From Myxococcales bacterium (GTDB lineage: Bacteria > Myxococcota_A > Polyangia > Polyangiales > Houyiibacteriaceae), in NCBI GenBank assembly GCA_019637115.1, contig JAHBWH010000190.1, positions 1 through 16,589 of the forward strand: a stretch of 16,589 bases of DNA. The letters are read 5' to 3'. The notes under the pieces were generated by a model that was not told the origin of the DNA, did no database searches, and saw nothing but the letters and a program-made list of their open reading frames with translations. Each line of letters starts with the position of its first letter. Within the stretch, counting starts at the first letter, position 1. Both the position numbers and the translations under genes were made by a program. This document shows positions 1,951 through 16,470 of this stretch, in pieces.

Positions 1951-2655
1951 ATGGAGGAGCTCCTCGCGATCGCGTTCGCGTTCCCGACCGTCGTCTACAC
2001 CGCGTTGGTGCTCGTCTCCCTCGTCTATTGGCTCGTGGGCATCGTCGGGCTCGTCGACATGGATCTCGGCGCCGACGGCGCGGTGGAGGCCGCCGCTGGC
2101 AAGGTCGACGGCGCGCTCGACGCCGCCGAGGTCGACGGCGCCGTCGACGCGAGCGAGGCCACCGACGGGATCTTCTCCTCGCTCCACTCCCTGCTCAGCG
2201 CGCTCCGACTGCGTCACGCTCCGCTGACCATCACCGCCAGCGTCCTCTTCCTCTTCGCCTGGGTCTTCTCCTACCTCGGCGCCCGCTACCTCGCGCCAGT
2301 GGTCCCCGGCCCCGAGCTCGTCGGCCAGCTCGCGGTCTTCCTCGGGGCCCTGGTGCCCGCGGTGCCACTGACCTCGCTGCTCACGCGACCGCTCGGGCCG
2401 CTCTTCCAGCGCAACCCAGGGCGGGGCAAGCGCGACCTCCTCGGCCACACCGGCCGCGTGCGCATCTCCGCCGCCGTCGGCGAGCGCGCGCAGATCCGCG
2501 TCCGCATCGGCGGTGACGACCTCCTCCTCCGCGCGCGCGCCGACGCCGAGCTGCCCACCGGCGCCGAGGTGCTGCTGGTCGACTACGACGAAGCGAACGA
2601 CACCTTCATCGCCGAGCCAATGTCGGCCGTGATGAACGACGAGTCGTCGCGCTGA
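1951..2655 (+). CDS. YqiJ/NfeD-like inner-membrane protein with C-terminal OB-fold beta-barrel (flotillin partner)
   Basis: About 235 aa. It has N-terminal hydrophobic helices (FAFPTVVYTALVLVSLVYWLVGIVGLV; ITASVLFLFAWVFSYLGARYL; LAVFLGALVPAVPLTSLL), an acidic DxD-rich loop, and a C-terminal beta-rich segment GHTGRVRISAAVGERAQIRVRIGGDDLLLRARADAELPTGAEVLLVDYD typical of short NfeD/YqiJ (DUF1449-type) proteins. It lies immediately upstream of, and on the same strand as, a flotillin gene, as in yqiJK and yuaF-floT. The start is set at the ATG at 1951; a GTG at 1903 is also possible. Confidence 0.6.
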   Translation: MEELLAIAFAFPTVVYTALVLVSLVYWLVGIVGLVDMDLGADGAVEAAAGKVDGALDAAEVDGAVDASEATDGIFSSLHSLLSALRLRHAPLTITASVLFLFAWVFSYLGARYLAPVVPGPELVGQLAVFLGALVPAVPLTSLLTRPLGPLFQRNPGRGKRDLLGHTGRVRISAAVGERAQIRVRIGGDDLLLRARADAELPTGAEVLLVDYDEANDTFIAEPMSAVMNDESSR

Positions 2656-2676
2656 GCCGCAGACCGAGCGGCGCCG

Positions 2677-2703
2677 AGAATCGGATCGCTCGGAACCGAT
2701 TCT
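2677..2703 (+). promoter_or_regulatory. 8-bp stem hairpin AGAATCGG-N11-CCGATTCT between the YqiJ-like and flotillin genes
   Basis: Perfect inverted repeat 22 nt downstream of the stop at 2655 and inside the 199-bp intergenic gap of the putative operon. A second inverted repeat GCTCGTG-gatga-CACGAGC lies at 2772-2790. Confidence 0.3.
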
Positions 2704-2854
2704 GCATTGCCCGCGGGTGGGGGGTGCTTACCGAGAAGCGCGCTCCCGACGGGCGGAGCGAAGCCGGTGACGCTCGTGGATGACACGAGCATCGCCGCTC
2801 GTGTAGATCAGCCAACCGCGAGCGGCGCCCGCCCGTTTGCGATGAGGGGAGACC

Positions 2855-4981
2855 ATGGACTCGAACACGTACGTGATCCTGATCGCCATCGGCGCAGGGT
2901 CGATCATCTTCTTCGGCCTCATCGCGATGGTCGCGAAGTTCTACCGCAAGGTCGACCAAGGGCGCGCCCTCATCATCAACCCCCTGCGTGGCGATCCCTG
3001 GGTCACCTTCGGCGGCGGCGTGGTGTGGCCGATCATCTACCGCGGCGAGGTCATGGACATCTCCGTCAAGACGATCGAGATCGACCGCCGCGGCAAGGAC
3101 GGGCTCATCTGCAAGGACAACATCCGCGCGGACATCTCCGTGACCTTCTTCGTGAAGGTGAACAAGACACCGGAGGACGTGCTCAACGTCGCGCAGCTCA
3201 TCGGCTGCGCGCGAGCCTCCGACCAGCAGACGATCGAGAACCTCTTCAACGCGAAGTTCTCCGAGGCCCTCAAGACCGCCGGCAAGAAGTTCGATTTCGC
3301 CGCGCTCTACGAGGAGCGCGAGCAGTTCCGCAAGGAGATCGAGGCGGTCATCGGCCAGGACCTCAACGGCTTCACGCTCGAGGACACCGCCATCGACTAC
3401 CTCGAGCAGACGCCGGTCGAGCTGCTCGACCCACAGAACACACTCGACGCCGAGGGTATCCGCAAGATCACCGAGATCACCGCGGCGCAGAACGTGAAGA
3501 CCAACGAGCTCCGTCAGGACGAGCGCATGAAGGTCGGCGCGGAGAACCTGAAGGCCGACGAGGCCGTCTTCGAGTTCGAGAAGCGTCGCGCCGAGGCCGA
3601 GGCGAAGAAGCACAAAGAGATCGCCGAGGCGCAGGCGAAGGCGGAGAACGAGGCCATCCGCGTGCGCGATCTCGAGCAGCGCATGACGATGATCGAGCGG
3701 CAGAAGCACGAGGAGGCGGTCGCGGTCGCCGCGGAGGCCAAGGCGCGAGGCGTCGCCATCGCCGAGAAGAACCGTGAGCGCGAGATCGCCGTCGAGACGG
3801 AGCGCGTCGAGAAGGCGCGGGCGCTCGAGGCGATCGGCCGGGAGCGCGAGACGGAGCTCGGCCGCATCCAGAAGGACAAGGAGGTCGAGGTCCAGAAGAA
3901 GGAGATCGCCGAGGTCGTCCGGACCCGTATCGTCGTCGACAAGTCGGTCGCCGAGGAGGAGGAGCGGATCAAGGATCTGCGCCTCGTCGCGGACGCGAAG
4001 CGCACCAAGGAGGCCACGATCATCACCGCCGAGGCGCAGGCCCAGGAGCTGCTCATCAAGCAAGTGAAGGCCGCCGAGGCGCAGGAGACCTCGGCCAAGC
4101 TCGAGGCGAAGCAGCGGCTCACGCTCGCCGAAGCCGACCTCGAGGTCGCCGACAAGGCGGCGCGCGGGAAGATGCGTTTCGCCGAGGGTGTCCAGGCCGA
4201 GGCAGCCGCGCCGGGCCTCGCCGAGGCGAGGGTCCGCGAGGCCACCGCGCAGGCCATCGAGAAGGAAGGGCTCGCGAAGGTCCGCGTCGACGAGGCGCAG
4301 GCCAGCGCGGTTCAGAAGCTCGGTCTCGCCGAGGCGGAGGTCGTGCGCGAGAAGCTCAAGGCCGAGGCCACCGGCGAGGAAGAGAAGGGGCTCGCCCAGG
4401 CGCGCATCGAGGAGGCCATGGCCGCCGCGATCGAGCGCAAGGGGCTGGCGGAGGCCGCGGCGATCGAGAAGAAGCTCGTCGCCGAGGCGACCGGTCTGGC
4501 CGAGAAGGCGACGGCGATGAAGGCGCTCGACGGCGTGGGCCGCGAGCACGAAGAGTTCCGCATCCAGCTCGAGAAGGAGAAGGAGGTGGAGCTCGCCGAG
4601 GTCGAGGCGAAGAAGGACATCGCCCGCGCGCAGGCCGACGTGATGGCCAAGGCGATGGAGAGCGCGAAGATCAACATCGTCGGCGGCGACGGCGCCTTCT
4701 TCGATCGCTTCGTGAAGGCGGTCTCGCTCGGCAAGTCGGCGGACGGCATGATCGAGGAGAGCTCCACGCTCAAGGCGCTCCTCTCGGACTACCTCACGGG
4801 GAACGGCAGCCTCCCGCAGGACCTCAAGGAGGTGCTGAGCCGGCCTGCGCTCGACTCGACCGCGGTCCGCAACCTCACCATCTCGGCGGCCCTCTCGAAG
4901 TTCATGTCCGGCGCCGACGGCGTCACGCGGGAGAAGCTCCAGAAGCTGATCGACCGCGCCAAGGACATGGGCCTCGAGTGA
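2855..4981 (+). CDS. yqiK: flotillin-family SPFH/Band-7 protein (YqiK/FloT type), unusually long (708 aa)
   Basis: It has an N-terminal TM helix (YVILIAIGAGSIIFFGLIAMVAKFYRK) and an SPFH domain (RALIINPLRGDPWVTFGGGVVWPIIYRGEVMDISVKTIEIDRRGKDGLICKDNIRADISVTFFVKV) that aligns with YqiK-type flotillins. A long Glu/Ala/Lys-rich coiled-coil region and a C-terminal flotillin tail (NIVGGDGAFFDRFVKAVSLGKS) follow. There is an RBS GAGGGGAG upstream of the ATG at 2855. Confidence 0.85.
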   Translation: MDSNTYVILIAIGAGSIIFFGLIAMVAKFYRKVDQGRALIINPLRGDPWVTFGGGVVWPIIYRGEVMDISVKTIEIDRRGKDGLICKDNIRADISVTFFVKVNKTPEDVLNVAQLIGCARASDQQTIENLFNAKFSEALKTAGKKFDFAALYEEREQFRKEIEAVIGQDLNGFTLEDTAIDYLEQTPVELLDPQNTLDAEGIRKITEITAAQNVKTNELRQDERMKVGAENLKADEAVFEFEKRRAEAEAKKHKEIAEAQAKAENEAIRVRDLEQRMTMIERQKHEEAVAVAAEAKARGVAIAEKNREREIAVETERVEKARALEAIGRERETELGRIQKDKEVEVQKKEIAEVVRTRIVVDKSVAEEEERIKDLRLVADAKRTKEATIITAEAQAQELLIKQVKAAEAQETSAKLEAKQRLTLAEADLEVADKAARGKMRFAEGVQAEAAAPGLAEARVREATAQAIEKEGLAKVRVDEAQASAVQKLGLAEAEVVREKLKAEATGEEEKGLAQARIEEAMAAAIERKGLAEAAAIEKKLVAEATGLAEKATAMKALDGVGREHEEFRIQLEKEKEVELAEVEAKKDIARAQADVMAKAMESAKINIVGGDGAFFDRFVKAVSLGKSADGMIEESSTLKALLSDYLTGNGSLPQDLKEVLSRPALDSTAVRNLTISAALSKFMSGADGVTREKLQKLIDRAKDMGLE

Positions 4982-4987
4982 GGCGCG

Positions 4988-5022
4988 CGCCGCGCGTCGA
5001 CCTTCGGGCTCGACGCGCGGCG
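4988..5022 (+). terminator. GC-rich hairpin (13-bp stem, 9-nt loop CCTTCGGGC) directly after the flotillin stop codon
   Basis: CGCCGCGCGTCGA pairs with TCGACGCGCGGCG as a perfect inverted repeat 7 nt downstream of the TGA at 4979-4981. There is no U-tract, as is common in high-GC genomes. Confidence 0.5.
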
Positions 5023-5205
5023 TGACCATCCCCCCTTCGGGCCGCCCCCTTCGGGTCGACGCTCCGCCCGCTCGGACCTCGAGGTGCCCGAGAGCGCTCC
5101 CCGAGGGCGCGCACCACGACCTTCGCGAACCCATGCTGCGCCGAGGCCCTCCCTCGGCCCGGCGGTCCCGGCGACGCTCCGTCGCCCAGCAGAGGATGAG
5201 CTCGC

Positions 5206-8200
5206 ATGGCAGACGACAGCGAGACCGAGACCGCCCTCGAAGGCGGGAACTACGAGGTGGTCCGGGCGCGCCTGGTCGCGCAGGCGAAGGAGCTCGGCGC
5301 CCGCATCGATCGGCTCAACGAGCGGCGCCGCGAGGTCTTCGGCGGCACCGAGCTCGAGGTGGTCGCGAACGAGCGCGTGCGCACCGAGAACAACTGCGTC
5401 CCACGCGACATCGTGAACGTCGGGGGCCAGCTCCTCTTCGGCTACAACGTCTTCCTCGGGCTGAAGAAGGAGACGACGGTCGGCGACATCCTCTCGGTGC
5501 ACCGCTTCGCCGAGACCGCGGACGGCTACGATCTCGGCGAGGTCCCGGCCCTCGAGGTCGACTTCCTCGCCGACGAAGGCTTCCGCAAGGAGCTCACGAC
5601 GCTCTACTCGTACTTCAAGGAGGCGCGCCTGCTGCAGCTCCGGAAGACCGACACGCGCTTGCTCGCGGTCTTTCAGATCGGCGCCTCGACGAGCGAGATC
5701 CGCGTCTTCCGCTGGCGCATCGATCCGAGCGGGCGCGTCACCTTCATGGACGCCCGCGGCGAGGGCGACCACGTCTTCCCGAAGGCGTACGACTTCGAGT
5801 GGGTGCCGGTCACGCGCAACGATCAGGTCCAGGGCCGCTACCCGCACCTGTCGATCCTCGACGAGATCTTCGTCGAGACCACCGGCGGCGACCTGACGAT
5901 CAAGGTGGAGAACAACACGGAGACCGGCCGAGGCATCTACGCCGAGCCGGTCGACGACCCGAACCAGGCGCTCGACGACGCGCAGGTCCGTTACGCGAAG
6001 GTCGGCAGCCTCATCCTGCTCGAGATCCTCCCCTTCCGTGAGCAGAGGAAGCGCTACTTCGTCTACAACGGCCGGATCCAGCGCGTGACACGCATCGACG
6101 CGATCGGCACGGCCTGCCGGAGCCTCCCCGAGGACCAGGGCATCCTCTTCCCGGGCGGCTTCTACCTCGAGACGGGCGAGCAGAAGATCTTCGACGAGGA
6201 CGTCGCGGGGCTCGAGCTCAAGCGCGTGATCCAGTCACCGAACGGCGAGGACATGCTCTACGTCTTCCACCGTCGCGACGAGGGCCTCTACCAGCTCCTG
6301 CCCTACAACGTGATCCGCAAAGAGCTGCAGACGCCGATCCGCGCGCACGGCTTCAGCCTCTTCGACGACGGAAAGATGGTCGTCTTCCGCGCGACCGAAG
6401 AGCCGACGCGCGTGCACCCGATGCAGATCTGGCGGACGCCCTTCACGAGCGCCGAGTACGCCGCCAAGGCCCCCACGAACGGCTCTTTCCTCGCGAAGGT
6501 GGGCAACGCAGATCTCGTCCGCGGCGTGAGCGACTGCTTCACCATCCGCCGGCTGATCGAACGCGCCGAGCCGAGCCGCGCGAACTACGAGGTGCTGATC
6601 AAGACGATCACCCGCACCCTCGACGCCTATTACTGGCTCGGCCACGAGGAGGTCGGCGCGCTCGACGCGAGCCTCACGGAGCTGCGGCGCACGGCCGAGC
6701 TCATCGTCGACGAGTTCGAGAAGCTGCTCGCGCTGCGGCAGCGAGCGGCCGCCGAGCTCGACGTGGCGAAGGCGAAGCAGGCCGAGATCCTCGCGAACGT
6801 CCGCGCCGCCGAGCTGAGCTCGGTCGAGGGCTTCATGCGCGCCCTCACGCAGCTCCGCCACCAGCGCGGGGCGCTCATCACGCTGAAGGAGGTCCGCTAC
6901 GTCGATCTCGAAGCAGCGGACGCGCTCGAGGCGGAGATCGTCGAGCAGTTCGACCGGGTGAGCCGGGCGTGCGTGAGCTTCCTGCTCGGTGACGACGCCC
7001 TCGTCCCGATCCGCGGCCGGCTCGAGGCCATCCTCGCGCGCGTGGACGAGTGCCGCACCGTGGCCGAGATGGCGCCGCTCGGCGCCGAGCTCGACGAGAC
7101 GGGTGAGGGCCTCGACGTGATCAGCGAGATCGTCCAGGGCCTCGACGTCGACGACGCGACCGCGCGCACGCAGATCCTCGAGGGCATCAGCGAGGTCTAC
7201 GCGCTCCTCAACCGCGTGCGCGCCAGCGCGGTCGCGCGTCGGCGCGAGCTCGCGAGCCAAGAGGGGCGCGCGGAGTTTGGCGCGCAGTTCAAGTTGCTCG
7301 CCCAGGCCGTGAGCAGCGGGCTCGCGCTCGCCGAGACACCCGAGCGGTGCGACGAGCAGCTCTCGCGCCTGATGGTGCAGCTCGAGGAGCTCGAAGCGCG
7401 CTTCAGCGAGCTCGACGAGTTCACGGCCGACCTCGCGGTCAAGCGCGAGGAGATCTACGAGGCCTTCAGCACCAAGAAGCAGGCACTCCTCGACGCGCGG
7501 CAACGCCGCGCCGAGGGGCTGATGGACGCGGCGAGCCGCATCCTCGAGGGCGTCGGCCGGCGAGCGCGCACGTTCAAGGCGCCGGACGAGCTCCACGCCT
7601 ACTTCGCGTCGGACCCGATGGTCACCAAGCTGCGCCAGATCGGCGCGCAGCTCCGAGAGCTCGGCGACTCGGTGAAGTCCGACGAGGTCGACGCGCGCAT
7701 GAAGAGCGCGCGCCAGGACGCGCTCCGCGCGCTGCGCGATCAGGTGGACCTCTTCGAAGAAGGCGACCTCATCCGGCTCGGCAAACACCGCTTCAGCGTG
7801 AACACCCAGCCGCTCGAGCTGACGATGGTGCCCCGCGGCGATCGCATGGCGATTCACCTCACGGGCACCGACTTCTACGAGCTCGTCGACGATCCCGAGC
7901 TCGAGGCCACGCGGCCCTATTGGTCGCAGGAGCTCGTCTCCGAGACGCCGACGGTCTATCGGGCCGAGTACCTCGCGACGGGCATCCTCTTCGACGCCGA
8001 AGAGAACCGCGACGGCCTGACCATCGAGGCGCTCCACGAGGCGCAGCGCACCGAGGGCGGCCTCGCCGAGGTCGTGCGGCGCGTGGCGTCGACGCGCTAC
8101 GACGAGGGCTACGACCGAGGTGTCCACGACGCGGACGCGACGCTCATCCTCGAGAAGCTGCTCACCCTCCGCGACTCGGCGGGGCTCCTTCGCTACGCCG

Positions 8201-10671
8201 CGACGCCGCGCGCGCTCGCCTGCCTCTTCTGGGCGCACGCGCCGTCGCCGATGGACGTCGCGCGAGGCGCGTCCACCCTCGACTCGCGCCCGCGGGGCGC
8301 CCCCGACGACGGGATGAAGACGGATGCCGCGCGGGGCATCCGGATCGATCGCGACGCGCTCCACCGGCGCGCGCGGAGCCTCGGTCGCCTGCGCCACGCC
8401 TTCGGGCACACCGACGAGCTCGCGGCCTTCGGACAGGAGCTCGCGGCCCACATCCGCTCTTTCCACACCGCGCACGGCATCCCGTGCACCGAGGGCGAAG
8501 CGCGCCTCGCGGGGCGCTATCTCGTCGAGGAGCTGATGGTCGAGCGGCCCCGCTTCGCGACCAGCGCGGACGCCACGCAGCTCCGTGACGCGCTGCTCCG
8601 CCGCCTCGACCTCGACGGCACGCGCCGCGCGTTCGAGGAGGACCTCGAGGCGAGCGGCGGCGGCCTGCGCGCGCGCCTCGCGCTCGTCCACGCCTGGCTC
8701 GACGCCTTCGTGCGGCGCAGCGACCGCGACGCCGCGAGCCCGGTCACGAGCGCGGCTAGGGGCCCGGTCGCGAGCCACGGCGTCGCCCACCTCGCTCACG
8801 CGAGCTTCGAGGCCGCCGCGCTCCTGCTCACGCCCAGCCTCGACCGCGAGCCCTCCAGCGCGCTCACGCGCGCCGAGGTGGAGGGTCTGCTCGGCCAGCA
8901 CCCGCGCATTCAGGGTCGGACGATGTCGCTGCGCCTCGACGAGACGCTGGAGCGCCTCAGCGAGTTCGTCCACCACCGCGTGCCCGGCTACCGCAGCTAC
9001 CGTGAGGTGCGCCACGGCTTCCTGGAACGCCAGCGCGTCCGGCTGCGGCTCGACGAGTACAAGCCGCAGGTGATGAGCGCCTTCGTGCGCAACCGGCTCA
9101 TCAACGAGGTCTACCTGCCGATCATCGGAGACAACCTCGCCAAGCAGCTCGGCGCGGCGGGGGCGGGCCGGCGGACGGATCTCATGGGCCTCCTCCTGCT
9201 CGTCTCACCGCCCGGCTACGGCAAGACGACGCTGATGGAGTACGTGGCCAACCGACTCGGGATGGTCTTCATGAAGGTGAACGGCCCGAGCCTCGGGCAC
9301 TCGGTCACCTCGCTCGACCCGGAGGAGGCGCCCAACGCCACGGCGCGGCAGGAGGTGGAGAAGATCAACCTCGCCTTCGAGATGGCGCAGAACGTGATGC
9401 TCTACCTCGACGACATCCAGCACACGCACCCGGAGCTCCTGCAAAAGTTCATCTCGCTCTGCGACGGCACGCGGCGGGTCGAGGGCGTCTGGAAGGGGCG
9501 CACGCGCACCTACGATCTGCGCGGCAAGAAGTTCTGCGTCGTGATGGCGGGCAACCCGTACACGGAGAGCGGCGAGAAGTTCCAGATCCCCGACATGCTC
9601 GCGAACCGCGCCGACACGTACAACCTCGGCGACATCCTCGAAGGGCGCGAGGAGGTCTTCGCGCTCAGCTACATCGAGAACGCGCTCACCTCGAGCCCCG
9701 CGCTCGCGCCGCTCGCGACGCGCGACCAAGGCGACGTCTACAAGGTCGTGCGCATGGCCAAGGGCGAAGAGGTGGCGACGAGCGAGCTCTCGTACGGCTA
9801 CGCCGCGGGCGAGCTCGAGGAGATGAAGACGGTCCTGCGCCACCTCTTCCGGGTGCAGGACGTGCTGCTGCGCGTGAACGCCGAGTACATCCGGAGCGCG
9901 TCGCAGGCCGACGCCTTTCGCACCGAGCCCCCCTTCAAGCTGCAGGGCAGCTACCGCAACATGAACAAGCTCGCCGAGAAGGTCGTCGCGGCGATGAACG
10001 ACGACGAGGTCGAGCGGCTCGTCGACGACCACTATCTCGGCGAGTCGCAGACGCTCACGACCGGCGCGGAGCAGAACCTGCTCAAGCTCGCGGACCTCCG
10101 CGGTCGACTCGCCCCCGAGCAGGCGGAGCGCTGGACGCAGATCAAGCGCGAGTTCGTCCGTCTACGCTCGCAGGGCGGCGGCGACGACGACCCGGTCACC
10201 CGGCTGACGGGGACGCTCTCGGGCCTGGGCCGCGAGCTCGAGTCGATCCGCGACACGATCCTCACGGCGGCCGAGCGCGCGGCGGCGGCGCGCGCCGCGA
10301 GCGAGCTCGCGGCCGAACGCAGCGCCGTCGACCGCGCGCGCGCGACCCACGACACGAACGGCGACGCCTTGCTCGCGGCGCTGGGCCCGAAGCTCGACCA
10401 GCTCGGCGAGGCCCTGGCGCGCCTCGCGAGCCCGAAGGTCGAGGTCAAGCTCGAGGCCCCCTCGCCGGGCCCCCTCACCAGCCGAGAGCTCGGGGCGACC
10501 GCCGATCAGCTCGCGGCGCAGGCAGAGCTCTTCGAGCGCACGCTCCTCCCCATGGTCCAGAGCACCACCCGGAACCTGGACGACACGAAGTCGCTGCACG
10601 ACCACATCATCCAGCTCCTCGACCTCGTGCGACGCATGGACACGAAGTTGCGAGAGACCTACGGCCTCTGA
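5206..10671 (+). CDS. giant (1821 aa) uncharacterised protein with a single C-terminal-proximal AAA+ ATPase module of the MoxR/AAA_5 (dynein-related) class
   Basis: This is an uninterrupted 5.47-kb ORF with high GC3. It starts at an ATG with AGAGGA 12 nt upstream. Walker A LLLVSPPGYGKTTLMEY is encoded at 9214-9231, Walker B NVMLYLDDIQH at about 9400-9414, and sensor-1 FCVVMAGNPY after it (LDDIxx...LxxLxD....R......FxxxxxxNP spacing as in AAA_5). The N-terminal 430 aa or so are beta-rich, the middle roughly 900 aa are alpha-helical and acidic, and the C-terminal 320 aa or so form a helical tail. Beyond the AAA+ module I recognise no homologue. Confidence 0.85.
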   Translation: MADDSETETALEGGNYEVVRARLVAQAKELGARIDRLNERRREVFGGTELEVVANERVRTENNCVPRDIVNVGGQLLFGYNVFLGLKKETTVGDILSVHRFAETADGYDLGEVPALEVDFLADEGFRKELTTLYSYFKEARLLQLRKTDTRLLAVFQIGASTSEIRVFRWRIDPSGRVTFMDARGEGDHVFPKAYDFEWVPVTRNDQVQGRYPHLSILDEIFVETTGGDLTIKVENNTETGRGIYAEPVDDPNQALDDAQVRYAKVGSLILLEILPFREQRKRYFVYNGRIQRVTRIDAIGTACRSLPEDQGILFPGGFYLETGEQKIFDEDVAGLELKRVIQSPNGEDMLYVFHRRDEGLYQLLPYNVIRKELQTPIRAHGFSLFDDGKMVVFRATEEPTRVHPMQIWRTPFTSAEYAAKAPTNGSFLAKVGNADLVRGVSDCFTIRRLIERAEPSRANYEVLIKTITRTLDAYYWLGHEEVGALDASLTELRRTAELIVDEFEKLLALRQRAAAELDVAKAKQAEILANVRAAELSSVEGFMRALTQLRHQRGALITLKEVRYVDLEAADALEAEIVEQFDRVSRACVSFLLGDDALVPIRGRLEAILARVDECRTVAEMAPLGAELDETGEGLDVISEIVQGLDVDDATARTQILEGISEVYALLNRVRASAVARRRELASQEGRAEFGAQFKLLAQAVSSGLALAETPERCDEQLSRLMVQLEELEARFSELDEFTADLAVKREEIYEAFSTKKQALLDARQRRAEGLMDAASRILEGVGRRARTFKAPDELHAYFASDPMVTKLRQIGAQLRELGDSVKSDEVDARMKSARQDALRALRDQVDLFEEGDLIRLGKHRFSVNTQPLELTMVPRGDRMAIHLTGTDFYELVDDPELEATRPYWSQELVSETPTVYRAEYLATGILFDAEENRDGLTIEALHEAQRTEGGLAEVVRRVASTRYDEGYDRGVHDADATLILEKLLTLRDSAGLLRYAATPRALACLFWAHAPSPMDVARGASTLDSRPRGAPDDGMKTDAARGIRIDRDALHRRARSLGRLRHAFGHTDELAAFGQELAAHIRSFHTAHGIPCTEGEARLAGRYLVEELMVERPRFATSADATQLRDALLRRLDLDGTRRAFEEDLEASGGGLRARLALVHAWLDAFVRRSDRDAASPVTSAARGPVASHGVAHLAHASFEAAALLLTPSLDREPSSALTRAEVEGLLGQHPRIQGRTMSLRLDETLERLSEFVHHRVPGYRSYREVRHGFLERQRVRLRLDEYKPQVMSAFVRNRLINEVYLPIIGDNLAKQLGAAGAGRRTDLMGLLLLVSPPGYGKTTLMEYVANRLGMVFMKVNGPSLGHSVTSLDPEEAPNATARQEVEKINLAFEMAQNVMLYLDDIQHTHPELLQKFISLCDGTRRVEGVWKGRTRTYDLRGKKFCVVMAGNPYTESGEKFQIPDMLANRADTYNLGDILEGREEVFALSYIENALTSSPALAPLATRDQGDVYKVVRMAKGEEVATSELSYGYAAGELEEMKTVLRHLFRVQDVLLRVNAEYIRSASQADAFRTEPPFKLQGSYRNMNKLAEKVVAAMNDDEVERLVDDHYLGESQTLTTGAEQNLLKLADLRGRLAPEQAERWTQIKREFVRLRSQGGGDDDPVTRLTGTLSGLGRELESIRDTILTAAERAAAARAASELAAERSAVDRARATHDTNGDALLAALGPKLDQLGEALARLASPKVEVKLEAPSPGPLTSRELGATADQLAAQAELFERTLLPMVQSTTRNLDDTKSLHDHIIQLLDLVRRMDTKLRETYGL

Positions 10672-10927: not shown

Positions 10928-11773
10928 TCAATCCCCACGGCGCCCGTCGCCGCCCCCACGCGGTGGAGCCTGCGCCGAGGCCCGCGCGATGTCGTCGTCG
11001 AGCCCCTCGGCCGCGGCCACCCGTCGCGCGAGCTCACCGACGAAACGTGCGAGCGGTCCTCCGTCGACGATCGCGTGGTTCGCGCTCACGGTGACGCAGA
11101 GCACCTCGCGGGGCGCGGTATCGTTGGGGTCGGTCGACGCCCGAGTCGTCGTCCCCCCGACGATCACGGAGAGATCGTGCAGGCCAGGCGCGCTCAGCCC
11201 ATAGCCCGCGCCCGAGCCGAACATGCCGACCGCCGACACGAGGGCCGAGCCGGTGTGTCGCTGCGCGAGCTCCGGCGCGGCGAGCAGCGCGCGATACGAA
11301 GCCCGCCGAACGACGCTCGGCAGCGCGAGGAGCGCGCGCGTCGCGCGGCGCTTCGCGGGCGAGGTGGTGCGCATGCCTCGCTCCCGCACCGAGCGCAGCT
11401 CGTCGTGCAGCGCGCGCGGCCCGCGACGGTCGATCCCACGGAGGACGTGGGCGTACGGGAACGAGCGCCCTTCGTGCTCGACCTCGACGATCGTCGTCAC
11501 GTCCACCTCGTCGAAGAGCACGAGCCGCCCCCGCCAATCTCGCCGGGCGTGGACCTCGGGGTGATGTGCGAGCGCGCCCCCGAGCGCGTGCAGGAAGAAC
11601 GCGGTCAGCGACGGTGACCCCCCGTCGCGCTCGCGCTGGGCTCGCAGCCTCCGGTGCGCGAGCGTCACGTCGAGCTCCACGAGGCCGTGCATCATCGGCT
11701 TGCCGCGGCCGAGGTGGAGCGTGTCGAGCACCAAGCGTCGCTCCGGCGGGAAGGGAACACGTCGCGCAGACAT
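10928..11773 (-). CDS. stand-alone 2-oxoacid dehydrogenase E2-type acyltransferase catalytic domain protein (no lipoyl domain)
   Basis: RVPFPPERRLVLDTLHLGRGKPMMHGLVELDVT matches the start of E2 catalytic domains (PLS..RR.IA..M...PH.T...EVDVT). The C-terminal TVSANHAIVDGGPLARFVGEL corresponds to the catalytic S-x-DH-R-x-x-DG segment, with His and the DG Asp retained. The start is set at the ATG at 11773; the longer 448-aa ORF upstream is only a read-through of the palindromic repeat array (poly-RA/SP translation). Confidence 0.7.
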   Translation of the reverse strand: MSARRVPFPPERRLVLDTLHLGRGKPMMHGLVELDVTLAHRRLRAQRERDGGSPSLTAFFLHALGGALAHHPEVHARRDWRGRLVLFDEVDVTTIVEVEHEGRSFPYAHVLRGIDRRGPRALHDELRSVRERGMRTTSPAKRRATRALLALPSVVRRASYRALLAAPELAQRHTGSALVSAVGMFGSGAGYGLSAPGLHDLSVIVGGTTTRASTDPNDTAPREVLCVTVSANHAIVDGGPLARFVGELARRVAAAEGLDDDIARASAQAPPRGGGDGRRGD

Positions 11774-11804
11774 GCGCGGAGCATAGCTCCGTGCAGAGCG
11801 CGGC

Positions 11805-12040
11805 GGGCTCGCACGCGAGAGCGGGCTCGCTCGCGAGCGCGGGCTCGCACGCGAGGCACACCGGGCTCGCACGCGAAGCGCAGCGGGCTGCACGCGAGGG
11901 CGGGCTCGCAAGCGAGCGCGGGCTCGCAAGCGAGCGCGGGCTCGCAAGCGAGCGCGGGCTCGCTCGCGACGTGCAGCGGGCTCGCAAGCGAGCGCGGGCT
12001 CGCGCGCGAAGCGCAGCGGGCTCGCACGCGACGTGCAGCC
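11805..12040. repeat. tandem array of about 12 imperfect palindromic units (18-bp GGGCTCGC-NN-GCGAGCGC and 22-bp variants ending GYGCAGC)
   Basis: The units are read directly from the sequence: gggctcgcacgcgagagc, gggctcgctcgcgagcgc, gggctcgcacgcgaggcacacc, gggctcgcacgcgaagcgcagc, gggctgcacgcgagggc, three identical gggctcgcaagcgagcgc, gggctcgctcgcgacgtgcagc, gggctcgcaagcgagcgc, gggctcgcgcgcgaagcgcagc, gggctcgcacgcgacgtgcagcc. Each unit carries a 5-6 bp inverted repeat (CTCGC/GCGAG) around a variable 2-bp centre. The array has no spacers and sits between divergent genes. Confidence 0.85.
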
Positions 12041-12306: not shown

Positions 12307-13803
12307 ATGTGGAAGAGACATCCGTTCTCATGGAATCGATCAGCGACGCTGTTGGTGGCTTCGCTCGCGCAGGCTTGCATGATGTCGCCGACGGACGGGA
12401 CCGAGCTCGCGTCGACATCGTCGGCTGTTTCGTTCAGCGGCTACGCCACCAGCGCGTCTCAAGAGGTGCAGGTCGAAGCCTTCAACCCCTCGACGCGCGC
12501 CTGGGTCGCGATCGCGTCCCCCGTCCCTGCCAGTGGCGCCACGCAGACCCTTTGGGGATCGCAGTGGCACGGCTGGAGCCTCAACCGCGCGATCCCGAGC
12601 GTCTACTGGACCCCCGGCGCGGCCGGCGCCAGCGCGCGAGTCCGCGCTCGCCTCACGACGGGGAACACCGTGGTCTCCGGACATGAAGATGCGTGGACGT
12701 GCCTCGCGCAGTCCGGCAGCAGCGCCGACTTCGTCGAGCGCTGCACGGTGCCGGAGACGACGATCTGTACGAGCAACTTCCTGCCGTTCTCGGCGCGGCG
12801 CAGCCCTTGCCCGCCGCGCTCGCTCCGCTTCACGCCGACCTCGGGCGCGCGCACCTACGTGCGCCTCCCCGACGCGACGACCACGGGCGTGATCCCGACC
12901 GCCACCCGGACGATCGAGTGGCGCGGTGACGCGGCCAGCTTCGTGGATCTCTTCGACGCGATCCCGGGCCCGGAGGGGTTCTCGCGAGGCGGCGTCAACG
13001 TGGTCCGCGTCCGCTATCCGAGCGACCGGAACGTGGACGCTCACGTGAGGGTCGACCCGGTCGCGCTCTCCGCCAGCGTACCCCGGCCGATCCCTCCGGG
13101 GTTCGGCGCCGCGCGCACGTATCGCCAATACGACGTCGGCGAGTGCTCGCTGTTCATGGGGTGGCGCAACCTGCTCACCGACTCCATCGCGCCCGCGCTC
13201 GAGGAGAGCCTCCGGGGGATCGTGCTCCCCGAGATCGGGGCCGTGGACGTGTATCCGCTCTCGCGCCTCGAGCTCTTCCCGGTGCTGCGGTCGGACGGCC
13301 AAGACGCCGTCCGCTTCGCCGGCCGCTTCAACCTCGTCTCGCACTCGCTGGGAGACCTGGGCAACGCGCTGATCGCCATCAACGTGCGGATCACGGCTCG
13401 TGGGGGTCGGATCACCGCGACCGTGGAGCCCGACGCGAGCAACGTCGTCTACGACCCGCAGGGCTTCGGCGCGCTCGGGATCGCGTTCGGAGTGCGGACC
13501 CGTGAGCAAGTGGAGACACGCATCCGGACGCGGATCGCAGCCGAGATCCCGAACAGGCTCACCGCCCTGCTGCCGGCGCAAGCCGCTCTCGTCGCCATCG
13601 ATCGCGTCGACGTTCGCGTGGACGGCATGAACGTCGTGCTCGCCGAGACGCGTCAGGACACTCAGTATGACCTGCTGCGCCTCGCCGGCCTCTGCAACCG
13701 GCCGGCGATTCTCCCCGGCGGCAACGAGGCGGGGATCCTCTTCTCCTACTTCGATCCGCCTTCGCCGGGTGACCCTCGTCCGCTCGGCGAGACGAGGCCC
13801 TGA
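12307..13803 (+). CDS. secreted hypothetical protein (499 aa) with a cleavable signal peptide
   Basis: It has an ATG with GGAGGAAGAAGAG upstream. The N-terminus MWKRHPFSWNRSATLLVASLAQA|CMMS has a basic n-region, a hydrophobic core and an AQA signal peptidase I site. There are eight Cys in the mature protein. I recognise no domain. The longer ORF-track version starting at 11566 reads through the repeat array and is rejected. Confidence 0.7.
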   Translation: MWKRHPFSWNRSATLLVASLAQACMMSPTDGTELASTSSAVSFSGYATSASQEVQVEAFNPSTRAWVAIASPVPASGATQTLWGSQWHGWSLNRAIPSVYWTPGAAGASARVRARLTTGNTVVSGHEDAWTCLAQSGSSADFVERCTVPETTICTSNFLPFSARRSPCPPRSLRFTPTSGARTYVRLPDATTTGVIPTATRTIEWRGDAASFVDLFDAIPGPEGFSRGGVNVVRVRYPSDRNVDAHVRVDPVALSASVPRPIPPGFGAARTYRQYDVGECSLFMGWRNLLTDSIAPALEESLRGIVLPEIGAVDVYPLSRLELFPVLRSDGQDAVRFAGRFNLVSHSLGDLGNALIAINVRITARGGRITATVEPDASNVVYDPQGFGALGIAFGVRTREQVETRIRTRIAAEIPNRLTALLPAQAALVAIDRVDVRVDGMNVVLAETRQDTQYDLLRLAGLCNRPAILPGGNEAGILFSYFDPPSPGDPRPLGETRP

Positions 13804-14005: not shown

Positions 14006-14599
14006 GTGCACGCGCGCGTCGCTCCTGCGAGCCCCACCCACGATCTGAAGCTGAGCTTCATCGGCACGCACGGCGTCGGCAAGACGACCCTCTGCTACGG
14101 CCTCGCCGCCCGCCTCAAGGCCCAGGACGTCGTCCTCGACATCGTCCACGAGGTCGCCCGGCGTTGCCCGCTCCCCATCAACGAGTCGACGAGCCTCGCG
14201 GCCCAGTCCTGGATCCTCCACACCCAGATCGCCGACGAGCTCGTCGCGTGCTCACGGCACCCGGTCGTCGTCTGCGACCGGAGCGTGCTCGACAACTACG
14301 TCTACCTGCTCCTCTCCGGCCGCGCGGGCGCGGGCCTCGAAGCGCTCGTGACGAGCTGGCTGCCGAGCTACGCGCTGCTCGTCTACGTGCCGATCGTCGA
14401 CGCGCCGCGCGCCGACGGGCTCCGCTCGACGGACCCGGAGTTCCAGCGCGCGGTCGATCAGCGGCTGCGCCGAGAGCTCGAGCGACGAGGCGTCGCCCCG
14501 CTCGTGCTCGATCCGCTCGCCCGCGAGGCGTGGCTCGACGTGGTCGAGGCAGCCGTGCTCGCGCGCATCGCCTCGCCGCAGCTTCCGCTGCTCGGATAG
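14006..14599 (+). CDS. small P-loop NTPase (AAA_28/NadR-kinase-like predicted ATPase or nucleotide kinase)
   Basis: Walker A FIGTHGVGKTTLCYGL lies right at the N-terminus. A hydrophobic strand ending in Asp (PVVVCDRS) is a Walker-B-like element. The roughly 190 aa size and layout resemble AAA_28 kinase-like proteins. The start is a GTG at 14006. Confidence 0.6.
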   Translation: MHARVAPASPTHDLKLSFIGTHGVGKTTLCYGLAARLKAQDVVLDIVHEVARRCPLPINESTSLAAQSWILHTQIADELVACSRHPVVVCDRSVLDNYVYLLLSGRAGAGLEALVTSWLPSYALLVYVPIVDAPRADGLRSTDPEFQRAVDQRLRRELERRGVAPLVLDPLAREAWLDVVEAAVLARIASPQLPLLG

Positions 14600-14688: not shown

Positions 14689-15318
14689 GTGACGAGAGCC
14701 CCCAAACCCCCTGTCGTCGGGTGCCCCGTGCTGCGAGCGCTGTTGATGCGTCACGCAGAGATCTTCGGCTCGGATCAGGAGCTCGAGCCCGTCATCGTCG
14801 AAGCGCTCCGAGCATCGCATCGTGACGACAAGAAGGAGGCGAAGGCGCTCGCGGAGCTGCACGTCGAGCGCGCGCTCTCGTTCAACCGGGCCCGCCTCGC
14901 TGCCTTGCTCCAGCGATTGCCGAGCTACGAGGCGGACGCCGCCGCGATCCGCGCGATCGCCCCTCGCCCCACGCCGAAGACCTCGAAGAGCTGGGGCGAG
15001 GAGCTCTACGCAGTCGGCGCGCGCCTGATGGAGGCCGAGCTCGCCGCGCGACCCGAGCCGGAGCCCGCCCTCGAGCGTGAGGCCGCGGCGGCCGGGCGAG
15101 CGTGGATCGGTGTCACGGTCTGGCCGGCAGAGCTGAAGGGGATCCGTTGGTGGGGAGAGGCGACGGACCTCGGCTCCGCGTGCCAAACGGCGGCCGAGAC
15201 CGCAGGTCGGCTCGACGCGTGGCTCGCGTGGCCCGATGAGGCAGCCGCAGCGGCTCGGGTCGCATCGCTGAAGCCGCCGTCGTTCGAGGCGTACCTCGGC
15301 GCACTCGAGGGGCGCTGA
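14689..15318 (+). CDS. hypothetical protein (about 209 aa, helical, Ala/Glu/Arg-rich)
   Basis: It is an ORF with coding-like GC3 bias. A GTG start at 14689 has GGAGG 9 nt upstream; an alternative ATG lies at 14746 (MRHAEIF). I recognise no motifs. The overlapping antisense ORF 14458..15186 is judged spurious. Confidence 0.5.
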   Translation: MTRAPKPPVVGCPVLRALLMRHAEIFGSDQELEPVIVEALRASHRDDKKEAKALAELHVERALSFNRARLAALLQRLPSYEADAAAIRAIAPRPTPKTSKSWGEELYAVGARLMEAELAARPEPEPALEREAAAAGRAWIGVTVWPAELKGIRWWGEATDLGSACQTAAETAGRLDAWLAWPDEAAAAARVASLKPPSFEAYLGALEGR

Positions 15319-15607: not shown

Positions 15608-15626
15608 CACGCGACGCTACCAGCCA

Positions 15627-15732
15627 TCGCGGAGGTTGGGCACGCCCGATCCGAGACGCGGCGCTCGCGCCGCTCGCCCTCGCGGAGGTTGGGCACGCCC
15701 GATCCGAGACGCGGCGCTCGCGCCGCTCGCCC
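15627..15732. repeat. perfect 53-bp tandem duplication (x2 plus an 11-bp partial third copy) in the acbp/wrbA divergent intergenic region
   Basis: TCGCGGAGGTTGGGCACGCCCGATCCGAGACGCGGCGCTCGCGCCGCTCGCCC occurs at 15627-15679 and identically at 15680-15732, followed by TCGCGGCAACC. Confidence 0.9.
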
Positions 15733-15782
15733 TCGCGGCAACCATCCCCCTCGCGTGGTTGGAACCCACCTGTTCCCCAGTT

Positions 15783-15846: not shown

Positions 15847-16470
15847 ATGCCGAACGTCGCGATCATCTACTACTCGTCCACGGGAACCAACGCCGCCATC
15901 GCGGAGGCCATCGCCGAAGGCGCGCGCGCCGCGGGGGCGGAGGTCCGGCTTCGCCTCGTCGCGGAGACGGCGCCCGACGCCGCGATCGACTCGAACCCGA
16001 AGTGGCGCGCCTTCGTCGACGAGAAGCGCGGGGAGCCCCGCGCGACGCCCGCCGATCTGGAGTGGGCCGACGCGGTCGTCTTCGGCACGCCGACCCGCTT
16101 CGGGAACATGGCCGCGCAGCTCAAGCAGTTCATCGACACGCTCGGCGGCGCCTGGTTCCAGGGCAAGCTCGCCGACAAGGTCTACGCCGGGTTCACGAGC
16201 GCGATGAACGTCCACGGCGGCCAGGAGGCGACGCTGCTCGCGCTCTACACCAGCATCCACCACTTCGGCGGCTACATCGTCACGCCGGGCTACACCGACC
16301 CCGTCACCTTCGCCAGCGGCGGCAACCCCTATGGCGTGAGCGTGACGACCGGCCCCGAGGGGAGCGGACCGAGCGAGCACGACCTCGCGCACGCGCGCTA
16401 CCTCGGTCGCCGCGTCGCCGAGGTCGCTGCTCGGCTGCGAGCGCCGCGGGCCGAGGTCTCTGCCGCCTGA
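15847..16470 (+). CDS. wrbA: NAD(P)H:quinone oxidoreductase WrbA (flavodoxin-like fold, type IV NQO)
   Basis: MPNVAIIYYSSTGTNAAIAEAIAEGA is a flavodoxin-like FMN-binding N-terminus. ADAVVFGTPTRFGNMAAQLKQFIDTLGGAWFQGKL and ATLLALYTSIHHFGGYIVTPGY match WrbA family conservation. The RBS is GAGGAG and the ATG is at 15847. Confidence 0.85.
   Translation: MPNVAIIYYSSTGTNAAIAEAIAEGARAAGAEVRLRLVAETAPDAAIDSNPKWRAFVDEKRGEPRATPADLEWADAVVFGTPTRFGNMAAQLKQFIDTLGGAWFQGKLADKVYAGFTSAMNVHGGQEATLLALYTSIHHFGGYIVTPGYTDPVTFASGGNPYGVSVTTGPEGSGPSEHDLAHARYLGRRVAEVAARLRAPRAEVSAA

Follow-up and report, generated by a model that had tools for sequence, protein, structure and literature searches.

The window analysed here corresponds to a whole contig (16,589 bp) from a metagenome-assembled genome (MAG) of Myxococcales; its G+C content of ~70% makes spurious long open reading frames (ORFs) plentiful, and coding genes were told from shadow ORFs by the G+C content of third codon positions (GC3). 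Between positions 1951 and 10671 the plus strand carries three consecutive genes, which encode a YqiJ-like membrane protein (1951-2655; 234 residues, GC3 0.94), a long flotillin (2855-4981; 708 residues, GC3 0.95) and a giant AAA+ protein (5206-10671; 1821 residues, GC3 0.95), with 224 nt between the stop codon of the flotillin gene and the start codon of the giant gene. An earlier, sequence-only reading of this stretch had proposed a YqiJ/NfeD-like gene, a long flotillin and a giant on one strand, at these positions and with this gap, and all of it is confirmed. Examination of related loci shows that the trio is co-inherited as a unit across at least six bacterial phyla.

When a single genome for each species was scanned, at least 563 confirmed homologues of the giant were obtained, and the best 80 loci were examined with 10-kb flanks, together with the window; these 80 come from ~29 Myxococcota, 23 Actinomycetota, 25 Gammaproteobacteria, one Planctomycetota MAG and two further MAGs whose assignment is lacking or odd. 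Gene neighbourhoods were delineated by two routes, tblastn searches with the window proteins and unsupervised all-against-all clustering of ORFs of at least 90 residues, and the two agree on the neighbourhoods of the 81 loci. An orthologue of the flotillin, near full length and with 45-61% identity, lies on the same strand directly 5' of the giant gene in 79 of the 80 informative loci (79 of 81 overall; locus L061 has 72 bp of upstream sequence and hence is not informative), and the YqiJ-like gene is present in 71 of the 74 loci with sufficient upstream sequence. Clustering revealed no fourth conserved gene across the 81 loci, all other families being found in no more than 14 loci each. Distant giants from a plasmid collection show 41-47% identity in the DUF3686 region described below, and the trio arrangement is kept in Deinococcus, Streptomyces globosus and Hymenobacter (Bacteroidota). 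Furthermore, the identities of the flotillins and of the giants to the window proteins co-vary among loci (Spearman 0.77, n = 76), which is consistent with inheritance as a unit. Given that order, orientation and synteny are kept across at least six phyla despite unrelated flanks, a functional link between the three genes can be argued. The three-component flotillin-associated system put forward in the sequence-only reading came with a refuting test of its own, namely a search for homologues of the giant in other genomes apart from any SPFH/NfeD neighbour; the counts given above are the outcome of that test, and the proposal survives it.

The flotillin consists of a single N-terminal transmembrane segment (residues 3-30), a Pfam Band_7 domain (residues 32-211, E 3.3e-9), a coiled coil (residues ~216-600) in which 64% of the residues are Ala, Glu, Lys, Arg or Gln, and a C-terminal domain particular to its family (residues ~601-708) that includes the conserved stretch IVGGDG.FFD.F.KA.S.GKA.DG. 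A BLASTP alignment with Escherichia coli YqiK extends over 444 residues with 29% identity (E 1e-33). Because Pfam found no YqiJ, NfeD or Flot domain, profile-profile comparison with E. coli YqiJ and YqiK was used as well, and the family profile of the flotillin matched YqiK with a probability of 99.9% over residues 7-467, that is, over the transmembrane, SPFH and coiled-coil regions. The unusual length noticed in the sequence-only reading is real: the window protein exceeds YqiK (553 residues) by 155 residues, the median orthologue has 694 residues, and the extra length is accounted for by an expanded Ala/Glu repeat region and the family-specific C-terminal domain, which differs from that of YqiK. 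The Pfam Flot domain is detected in YqiK but neither in the window flotillin nor in four of its orthologues. Searches of PDB sequences with the flotillin and with the YqiJ-like protein, as single sequences or as profiles, gave no matches.

The YqiJ-like protein contains three hydrophobic segments (residues 3-40, 90-111 and 117-145) and a beta-rich C-terminal domain, and on its own has no match in Pfam or NCBIfam. A profile built from 36 orthologues aligns with E. coli YqiJ over 130 columns (hhalign probability 95.7%, E 1e-8), and the homology extends over the C-terminal, putatively NfeD-type domain. In the 36-sequence alignment, the orthologues share an architecture of three transmembrane segments (TM1-TM3) ahead of the C-terminal domain, with an FPT motif in TM1 and an acidic loop before TM2. 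No match to the Pfam NfeD family (PF01957) was obtained for the window protein and five orthologues, the Deinococcus orthologue remaining below threshold (E 0.0078, 16.8 bits against a cut-off of 29.1), and a PDB profile search with the family did not find an NfeD structure; the Hymenobacter orthologue is annotated as a member of the DUF1449 family. Taking these comparisons together, the product of 1951-2655 is predicted to be a YqiJ/YuaF-like inner-membrane protein with an NfeD-like C-terminal beta domain. A 27-bp tandem repeat at 2102-2158 encodes part of its Asp/Gly/Ala-rich acidic TM1-TM2 loop, the length of which among orthologues ranges from nearly none in Actinomycetota to more than 100 residues in locus L002 (alignment columns 95-230). 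The E. coli yqiJ-yqiK and Bacillus subtilis yuaF-floT operons have the same gene order, with the small membrane protein first, and the same topology, and the homology to the E. coli pair is detectable; unlike the locus considered here, these operons lack a giant ATPase.

In the giant, the sequence-only reading had recognized nothing apart from an AAA module, and this part of it has to be amended. Pfam identifies DUF3686 (PF12458) at residues 29-476 (E 1.5e-198, 660.3 bits against a cut-off of 25, profile positions 1-448 of 448) and DUF7902 at residues 597-681 (E 2.5e-26), in addition to AAA (E 2.2e-8, 35.1 bits) and AAA_5 (E 4.4e-6, 27.2 bits, cut-off 22), both above their cut-offs and with the generic AAA family scoring higher. 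No transmembrane segment is predicted, and Pfam shows no protease, DNA-binding or nuclease domain. The giant is named 'DNA repair ATPase' in databases, where it has more than 4371 homologues and is 100% identical to a protein from a Myxococcales MAG, and its signature domain forms 779 clusters at 50% identity.

Two AlphaFold2 runs with 77-sequence alignments (mean predicted local distance difference test, pLDDT, 86.9 and 81.3) provide a domain-level model of the giant, all parts of which are encoded on the plus strand. A long helix (residues 14-45) and a predicted beta-propeller of ~28 strands (5356-6435, residues 51-410) make up the modelled core of DUF3686. Foldseek matches of this beta domain in the PDB include WD40-type proteins, Vps18, the N-terminal domain of the clathrin heavy chain, IFT-A, prolyl oligopeptidase and paraoxonase (E 5e-6 to 3e-4); the template modelling (TM) scores are low, so that only the fold class is claimed. 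The propeller is followed by a spectrin-repeat-like helical rod that includes DUF7902 (6451-7752, residues 416-849) and by a middle region of small beta-sheet elements and helical bundles (7768-9075, residues 855-1290), for which no Pfam family and no named relative was found and which is modelled mostly with pLDDT above 90 (second model, model residues 20-440). Next comes a single AAA+ module (9073-10185, residues ~1290-1660, corresponding to the Pfam AAA and AAA_5 matches) and, finally, a helical or coiled-coil tail of low conservation (10192-10668, residues 1663-1821), where the helices (813-969 in the numbering of the second model) have pLDDT values of 35-75 and the alignment consensus is weak.

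The AAA+ module contains a Walker A motif (GYGKTT, residues 1337-1342), a Walker B motif (LYLDD, residues 1399-1403, nucleotides 9400-9414) with Asp-Asp in place of the usual Asp-Glu, a sensor-1 Asn1450 and a candidate arginine finger, R1468; the nucleotide-binding motif residues, including the Asp-Asp of Walker B, are invariant in alignments of 14 and of 77 sequences. In Foldseek comparisons, the MoxR-class proteins NorQ and CbbQ together with RuvB (TM scores up to 0.61, normalized by target) and MCM are matched about equally, and phmmer detects weak matches to p97/Cdc48 that cover the P-loop only. The MoxR-class chaperones (NorQ/NorD, CbbQ/CbbO, RavA/ViaA) are among the best fold matches and, read by eye, NP..E.G....P....NR, located between Walker B and sensor 1, is similar to the MoxR pattern; however, the giant is ~6 times the size of MoxR, its Walker B motif differs from that of the class, and a MoxR-type partner with a VWA/MIDAS domain was found neither among the ORFs of the window nor as a conserved fourth gene in the 81 loci. 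The giant is soluble and probably active as an AAA+ protein, and its protein-interaction domains are large. Precomputed matches to PilZ (PF07238) are present in some myxobacterial giants (P0059, P0061 and P0079, from Sorangium and Chondromyces) and hint at a cyclic di-GMP input in these lineages; P0059 and P0079 match the normal beginning of the family over their first 160 residues and have no large N-terminal extension.

The sequence-only reading also pointed to a strong hairpin between the flotillin and giant genes, and indeed a GC-rich stem-loop on the plus strand (4986-5024) begins 5 nt 3' of the flotillin stop codon. Its predicted stability (-37.1 kcal/mol, z -4.68) was not equalled by any of 200 shuffled sequences, whereas the fold of the entire spacer, taken as 236 nt, is ordinary for its composition (z -1.5). 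The hairpin has no T tract and for this reason was not called by the terminator scan. Stem-loops 3' of the flotillin stop codon recur in 30 of 79 loci at z < -2, and in 14 at z < -3, spanning phyla with unrelated spacer sequences, a recurrence that backs the hairpin idea of the sequence-only reading; some of them resemble classical intrinsic terminators with T tracts. Those within the stop codon plus 67 nt include the stem-loops of L001, L003, L031, L042, L045, L051, L060, L067, L068, L075 and L076, among others. The spacing between the flotillin and giant genes has a median of 84 bp (interquartile range 23-146), and in many Actinomycetota the two genes overlap or are less than 40 bp apart, which implies co-transcription. 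The hairpin is a candidate for a partial terminator or an mRNA-stabilizing element, and the presence of stem-loops in some lineages and of gene overlap in others fits attenuation or differential mRNA stability rather than wholly separate expression.

In some lineages, the trio is accompanied by additional genes. A pair of genes for DUF2170 (YjfI-like, CesT/Tir superfamily) and PspA/IM30 lies directly 5' of the module in 14 gammaproteobacterial loci, a rhomboid protease is encoded 3' of it in 9 loci and a phospholipase D (PLD) family hydrolase in 8 loci; L039 (5671-15817) and L042 (5376-16452) are examples of such extended operons. In Hymenobacter (L082, 3592-13899), a divergent LexA-family regulator is followed by CesT/Tir, PspA, DUF1449, flotillin and giant. 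On pQBR103, a megaplasmid of Pseudomonas fluorescens SBW25 (L085, 986-14190), the trio is preceded by YjfI, PspA, rhomboid, DUF2491, DUF350 and DUF1190 genes, with a glutathionylspermidine-synthase-like gene between DUF1190 and the YqiJ-like, SPFH and giant genes, the result being a fusion of the module with an entire yjfIJKLMC-like polyamine/PspA operon. Each of these partners either is associated with membranes or forms part of the envelope-stress (phage-shock) repertoire, and the suggestion of the sequence-only reading that the system might act in membrane remodelling or stress fits the PspA, CesT/Tir, rhomboid and PLD genes of these lineages. None of these partners was found within 10 kb of the module in the loci of Myxococcota and Actinomycetota or anywhere in the window, where tblastn and Pfam searches of the ORFs detected no homologue of PspA or DUF2170/CesT.

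The association itself, the novelty of which the sequence-only reading implied, has been described before. An operon with the architecture CesT/Tir - PspA - YqiJ/YuaF - Band-7/flotillin - beta-propeller plus coiled-coil plus AAA-ATPase was reported by Ravi, Anantharaman, Aravind, Gennaro et al. (bioRxiv 2020; mSystems 2024; PMC11237479), along with a PspA-less 'abbreviated operon', in which the YqiJ/YuaF member has three transmembrane segments; the passage on this operon notes a PLD hydrolase in some Proteobacteria and proposes a role in sub-membrane assembly and dynamics, and Table S3 of that paper lists an exactly matching architecture in Dokdonia donghaensis (ANH61663.1). The window contains a transmembrane Band_7 flotillin, a YqiJ-like protein with three transmembrane segments and a propeller-AAA+ giant; the CesT/Tir-PspA pair that characterizes the full operon is missing, and the window accordingly is an instance of the abbreviated form only, a myxobacterial PspA-less member of a type of operon already in print, without the PLD hydrolase of some members. 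Our analysis independently recovered both forms, the extended one in Pseudomonas, Hymenobacter and pQBR103 and the abbreviated one in more than 60 other loci. The treatment of the operon in that paper, as it appears in one paragraph and one table row, is computational and includes no quantified synteny, no structural model and no link to DUF3686 or 'DNA repair ATPase'; to that paragraph and row, the present analysis adds counts of how widely the trio is conserved, a structural model at the level of domains and evidence against the database name. A survey of the SPFH proteins of Pseudomonas aeruginosa (PMC13086221) does not mention this ATPase, and a 2025 review describes the roles of the Band-7 partners of PspA as undetermined and a Vps4-like ATPase as apparently missing in bacteria. 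Our literature searches turned up no experimental work on the trio, no paper mentioning DUF3686 or PF12458 and none pairing flotillin with 'DNA repair ATPase'.

So what could be the function of such a module? The solution that seems to us reasonably probable is that the trio works as one conserved unit at the inner membrane, with the ATPase acting on the assembly of the flotillin (and of PspA) under stress or during remodelling. Like the SPFH-NfeD complexes with solved structures, the flotillin and the YqiJ-like, NfeD-type protein would build a cage or microdomain on the cytoplasmic side of the membrane, and the giant would oligomerize via its AAA+ module, probably into a hexamer with six long arms, the propeller and rod of which might dock on the family-specific C-terminal domain or on the coiled coil of the flotillin. 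ATP could then be used to assemble, disassemble or remodel the flotillin scaffold, or PspA/ESCRT-III polymers or client proteins held by that scaffold, during membrane stress, by analogy with the action of FtsH within HflK/C cages or of Vps4 on ESCRT-III. At the level of expression, the hairpin would probably attenuate read-through or stabilize the upstream mRNA, such that the structural proteins would be made in excess and the ATPase in sub-stoichiometric amounts.

The HflK/HflC-FtsH system, which serves as a mechanistic analogy, also couples an SPFH scaffold to an AAA+ protein at the inner membrane, but FtsH is a membrane-anchored protease of the classical AAA clade, whereas the giant is free of transmembrane segments and protease domains and has a MoxR/RuvB-like fold; in contrast to HflK/HflC-FtsH, the ATPase and the SPFH protein are here encoded together in one module. 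In comparison with the ESCRT-III/Vps4 and PspA/PspF systems, the giant lacks an MIT domain, falls outside the Vps4 clade and is not an NtrC-type enhancer-binding protein. In some lineages, the module is fused to a gene for PspA, the bacterial ESCRT-III, which makes ATPase-driven polymer turnover conceivable; PspA is missing from the window and from most loci.

Several observations weigh against the function proposed here and have to be taken into account. The functional inference is drawn wholly from gene neighbourhood and domain content, and the co-variation of identities could reflect shared phylogeny alone. Two loci depart from the rule: in a Labilithrix MAG (L057, 1-10000), no flotillin is encoded within 10 kb of the giant, the neighbours being an AraC regulator and an aldehyde dehydrogenase, and in L010 (3563-10001), 6.4 kb with four envelope genes (OmpA, DUF11, LamG-like and CopD-like) separate the flotillin from the giant. 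The absence of PspA from the window and from all loci of Myxococcota and Actinomycetota within the 10-kb flanks means that a PspA-directed role is not general. With regard to the enzyme itself, the Asp-Asp of Walker B means that it may work slowly or as a switch and not remodel processively; the fold matches of the AAA+ module are weak (Foldseek E ~1e-4, TM score at most 0.61, to NorQ) and do not reveal substrate-threading pore loops.

A bolder version of the scenario, which we offer tentatively and which in its entirety is doubtful, casts the giant as the missing ATP-driven remodeller of bacterial sub-membrane scaffolds. Under this version, a hexamer of ~1.2 MDa would extend six arms of propeller and spectrin-like rod, reminiscent of membrane coats of the protocoatomer type, that would grip flotillin cages and any PspA/ESCRT-III polymers, and ATP hydrolysis would assemble or strip these scaffolds and thereby repair or reshape the inner membrane. 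Should this be the case, bacteria would possess in the giant an equivalent of Vps4/ESCRT or of the coat-uncoating ATPases, which reviews at present describe them as lacking.

The alternatives to a common functional module start from the same neighbourhood data. The three genes could be conserved neighbours with separate transcription and function, the hairpin being a full terminator and the giant working on other substrates, so that nothing but shared regulation or hitch-hiking would keep them together. The strength of the hairpin and the 224-nt spacer in the window, as well as the terminator-like stem-loops with T tracts in several relatives, are compatible with this possibility, and so are YqiJ-flotillin pairs that exist apart from the giant, such as E. 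coli yqiJK, as stated also in the operon passage of PMC11237479. However, the overlapping or closely spaced genes of many Actinomycetota imply co-transcription, the retention of synteny, order and orientation over at least six phyla with otherwise unrelated flanks speaks for a functional link, and the module flotillin represents a distinct long clade without a Pfam Flot domain, consistent with specialization for a partner. We consider separate transcription and function unlikely.

Another scenario involves a conflict system, that is, anti-phage defence or abortive infection, in which the flotillin and the YqiJ-like protein would sense a perturbation of the envelope caused by phage and the giant would trigger an effector directed at membranes or nucleic acids, for instance, the PLD hydrolase. 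Giant nucleoside triphosphatases with beta-propellers are frequent in conflict systems, and the patchy spread of the module over distant phyla, its presence on megaplasmids and secondary replicons (pQBR103, Streptomyces, Deinococcus, Hymenobacter), the PLD-superfamily genes 3' of it in 8 loci and the divergent LexA-family regulator in Hymenobacter could all be accommodated. Yet none of the 5027 models of PADLOC-DB 2.0 gave a significant match, the only hits being IetA and mad8 (E 0.004, over ~30 residues of the P-loop) and the flotillin and YqiJ-like proteins having no match whatsoever; no homologue was found among 50,697 phage records; and the conserved core contains no effector domain, PLD being present in just 8 of the 81 loci. 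The neighbours in the window are of the housekeeping type (ribA, alkB, an acyltransferase and wrbA), nothing resembling a defence island or a mobile element was detected in the flanks, and literature searches combining flotillin with anti-phage activity returned nothing relevant. A defence function thus appears quite improbable.

Finally, the proposition that the giant is a DNA repair ATPase with a meaningful adjacency to alkB and an incidental one to the flotillin deserves very little credence: it draws on the wording that Pfam attaches to DUF3686 ('ATPase involved in DNA repair'), on the NCBI name, on the alkB gene immediately upstream on the opposite strand and on RuvB being among the best fold matches of the AAA+ module, but the scores obtained with the RuvB equivalog models, 21.8 and 18.8 bits, are far below the cut-offs of 282 and 299, the likeness to RuvB is confined to the generic AAA+ core and is equalled by NorQ and MCM, Pfam reports no DNA-binding or nuclease domain, and alkB accompanies none of the 80 related loci, compared with 79 of the 80 informative ones for the flotillin, so that the adjacency of alkB to the module is incidental. 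A DNA-repair role was rejected on these RuvB scores, the lack of alkB in relatives and the lack of any DUF3686/PF12458 literature in our searches, and the label 'DNA repair ATPase' is an unsupported database name; the giant is not a member of an already characterized family with an unrelated role, the other outcome against which the sequence-only reading had guarded.

Returning to the inner-membrane module, bacterial flotillins and PspA/ESCRT-III are established as membrane organizers and repair factors, and the coupling of a giant AAA+ protein to a specialized flotillin hence offers an experimental entry point. Direct genetics is possible in tractable carriers, including P. fluorescens SBW25 with pQBR103, Myxococcus, Corallococcus, Streptomyces and Proteus. 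In addition, the name 'DNA repair ATPase' is almost certainly wrong for the thousands of proteins that bear it.

The remaining genes of the window flank the module on both sides. On the minus strand upstream of it are ribA (329-1003; GTP_cyclohydro2, E 5e-64) and alkB (1230-1952; 320 bits to the AlkB equivalog model, the profile match starting at residue 34). The alkB gene is divergent from the YqiJ-like gene, and the starts of the longest ORFs overlap in CATG at 1950-1953; with no room left for a promoter, one of the two starts is probably internal. Downstream of the giant, a 2-oxoacid-dehydrogenase-type acyltransferase is encoded on the minus strand (10928-11743), followed on the plus strand by a protein with a signal-peptide-like N-terminus, apparently secreted, without a Pfam family (~12310-13803; 497 residues), an AAA_28 protein (14006-14599), an ORF without a Pfam family (14689-15318; 209 residues) and wrbA (~15847-16470), the WrbA homology beginning near 15847. 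The two genes without Pfam families show a strong coding signal (GC3 0.83-0.9). Scans for Rfam families and for tRNAs gave no matches in the window.

Two repeat arrays lie in this downstream part. About 12 tandem copies of an internally palindromic 18-bp unit, GCGGGCTCGCACGCGAGC, alternatively scored with a 40-bp period, occupy 11803-12031, within the 570 bp that separate the divergent genes for the acyltransferase and the secreted protein. A direct repeat of 53 bp, in 2.2 copies with 98% identity, is located at 15623-15738, just 5' of the wrbA coding region.

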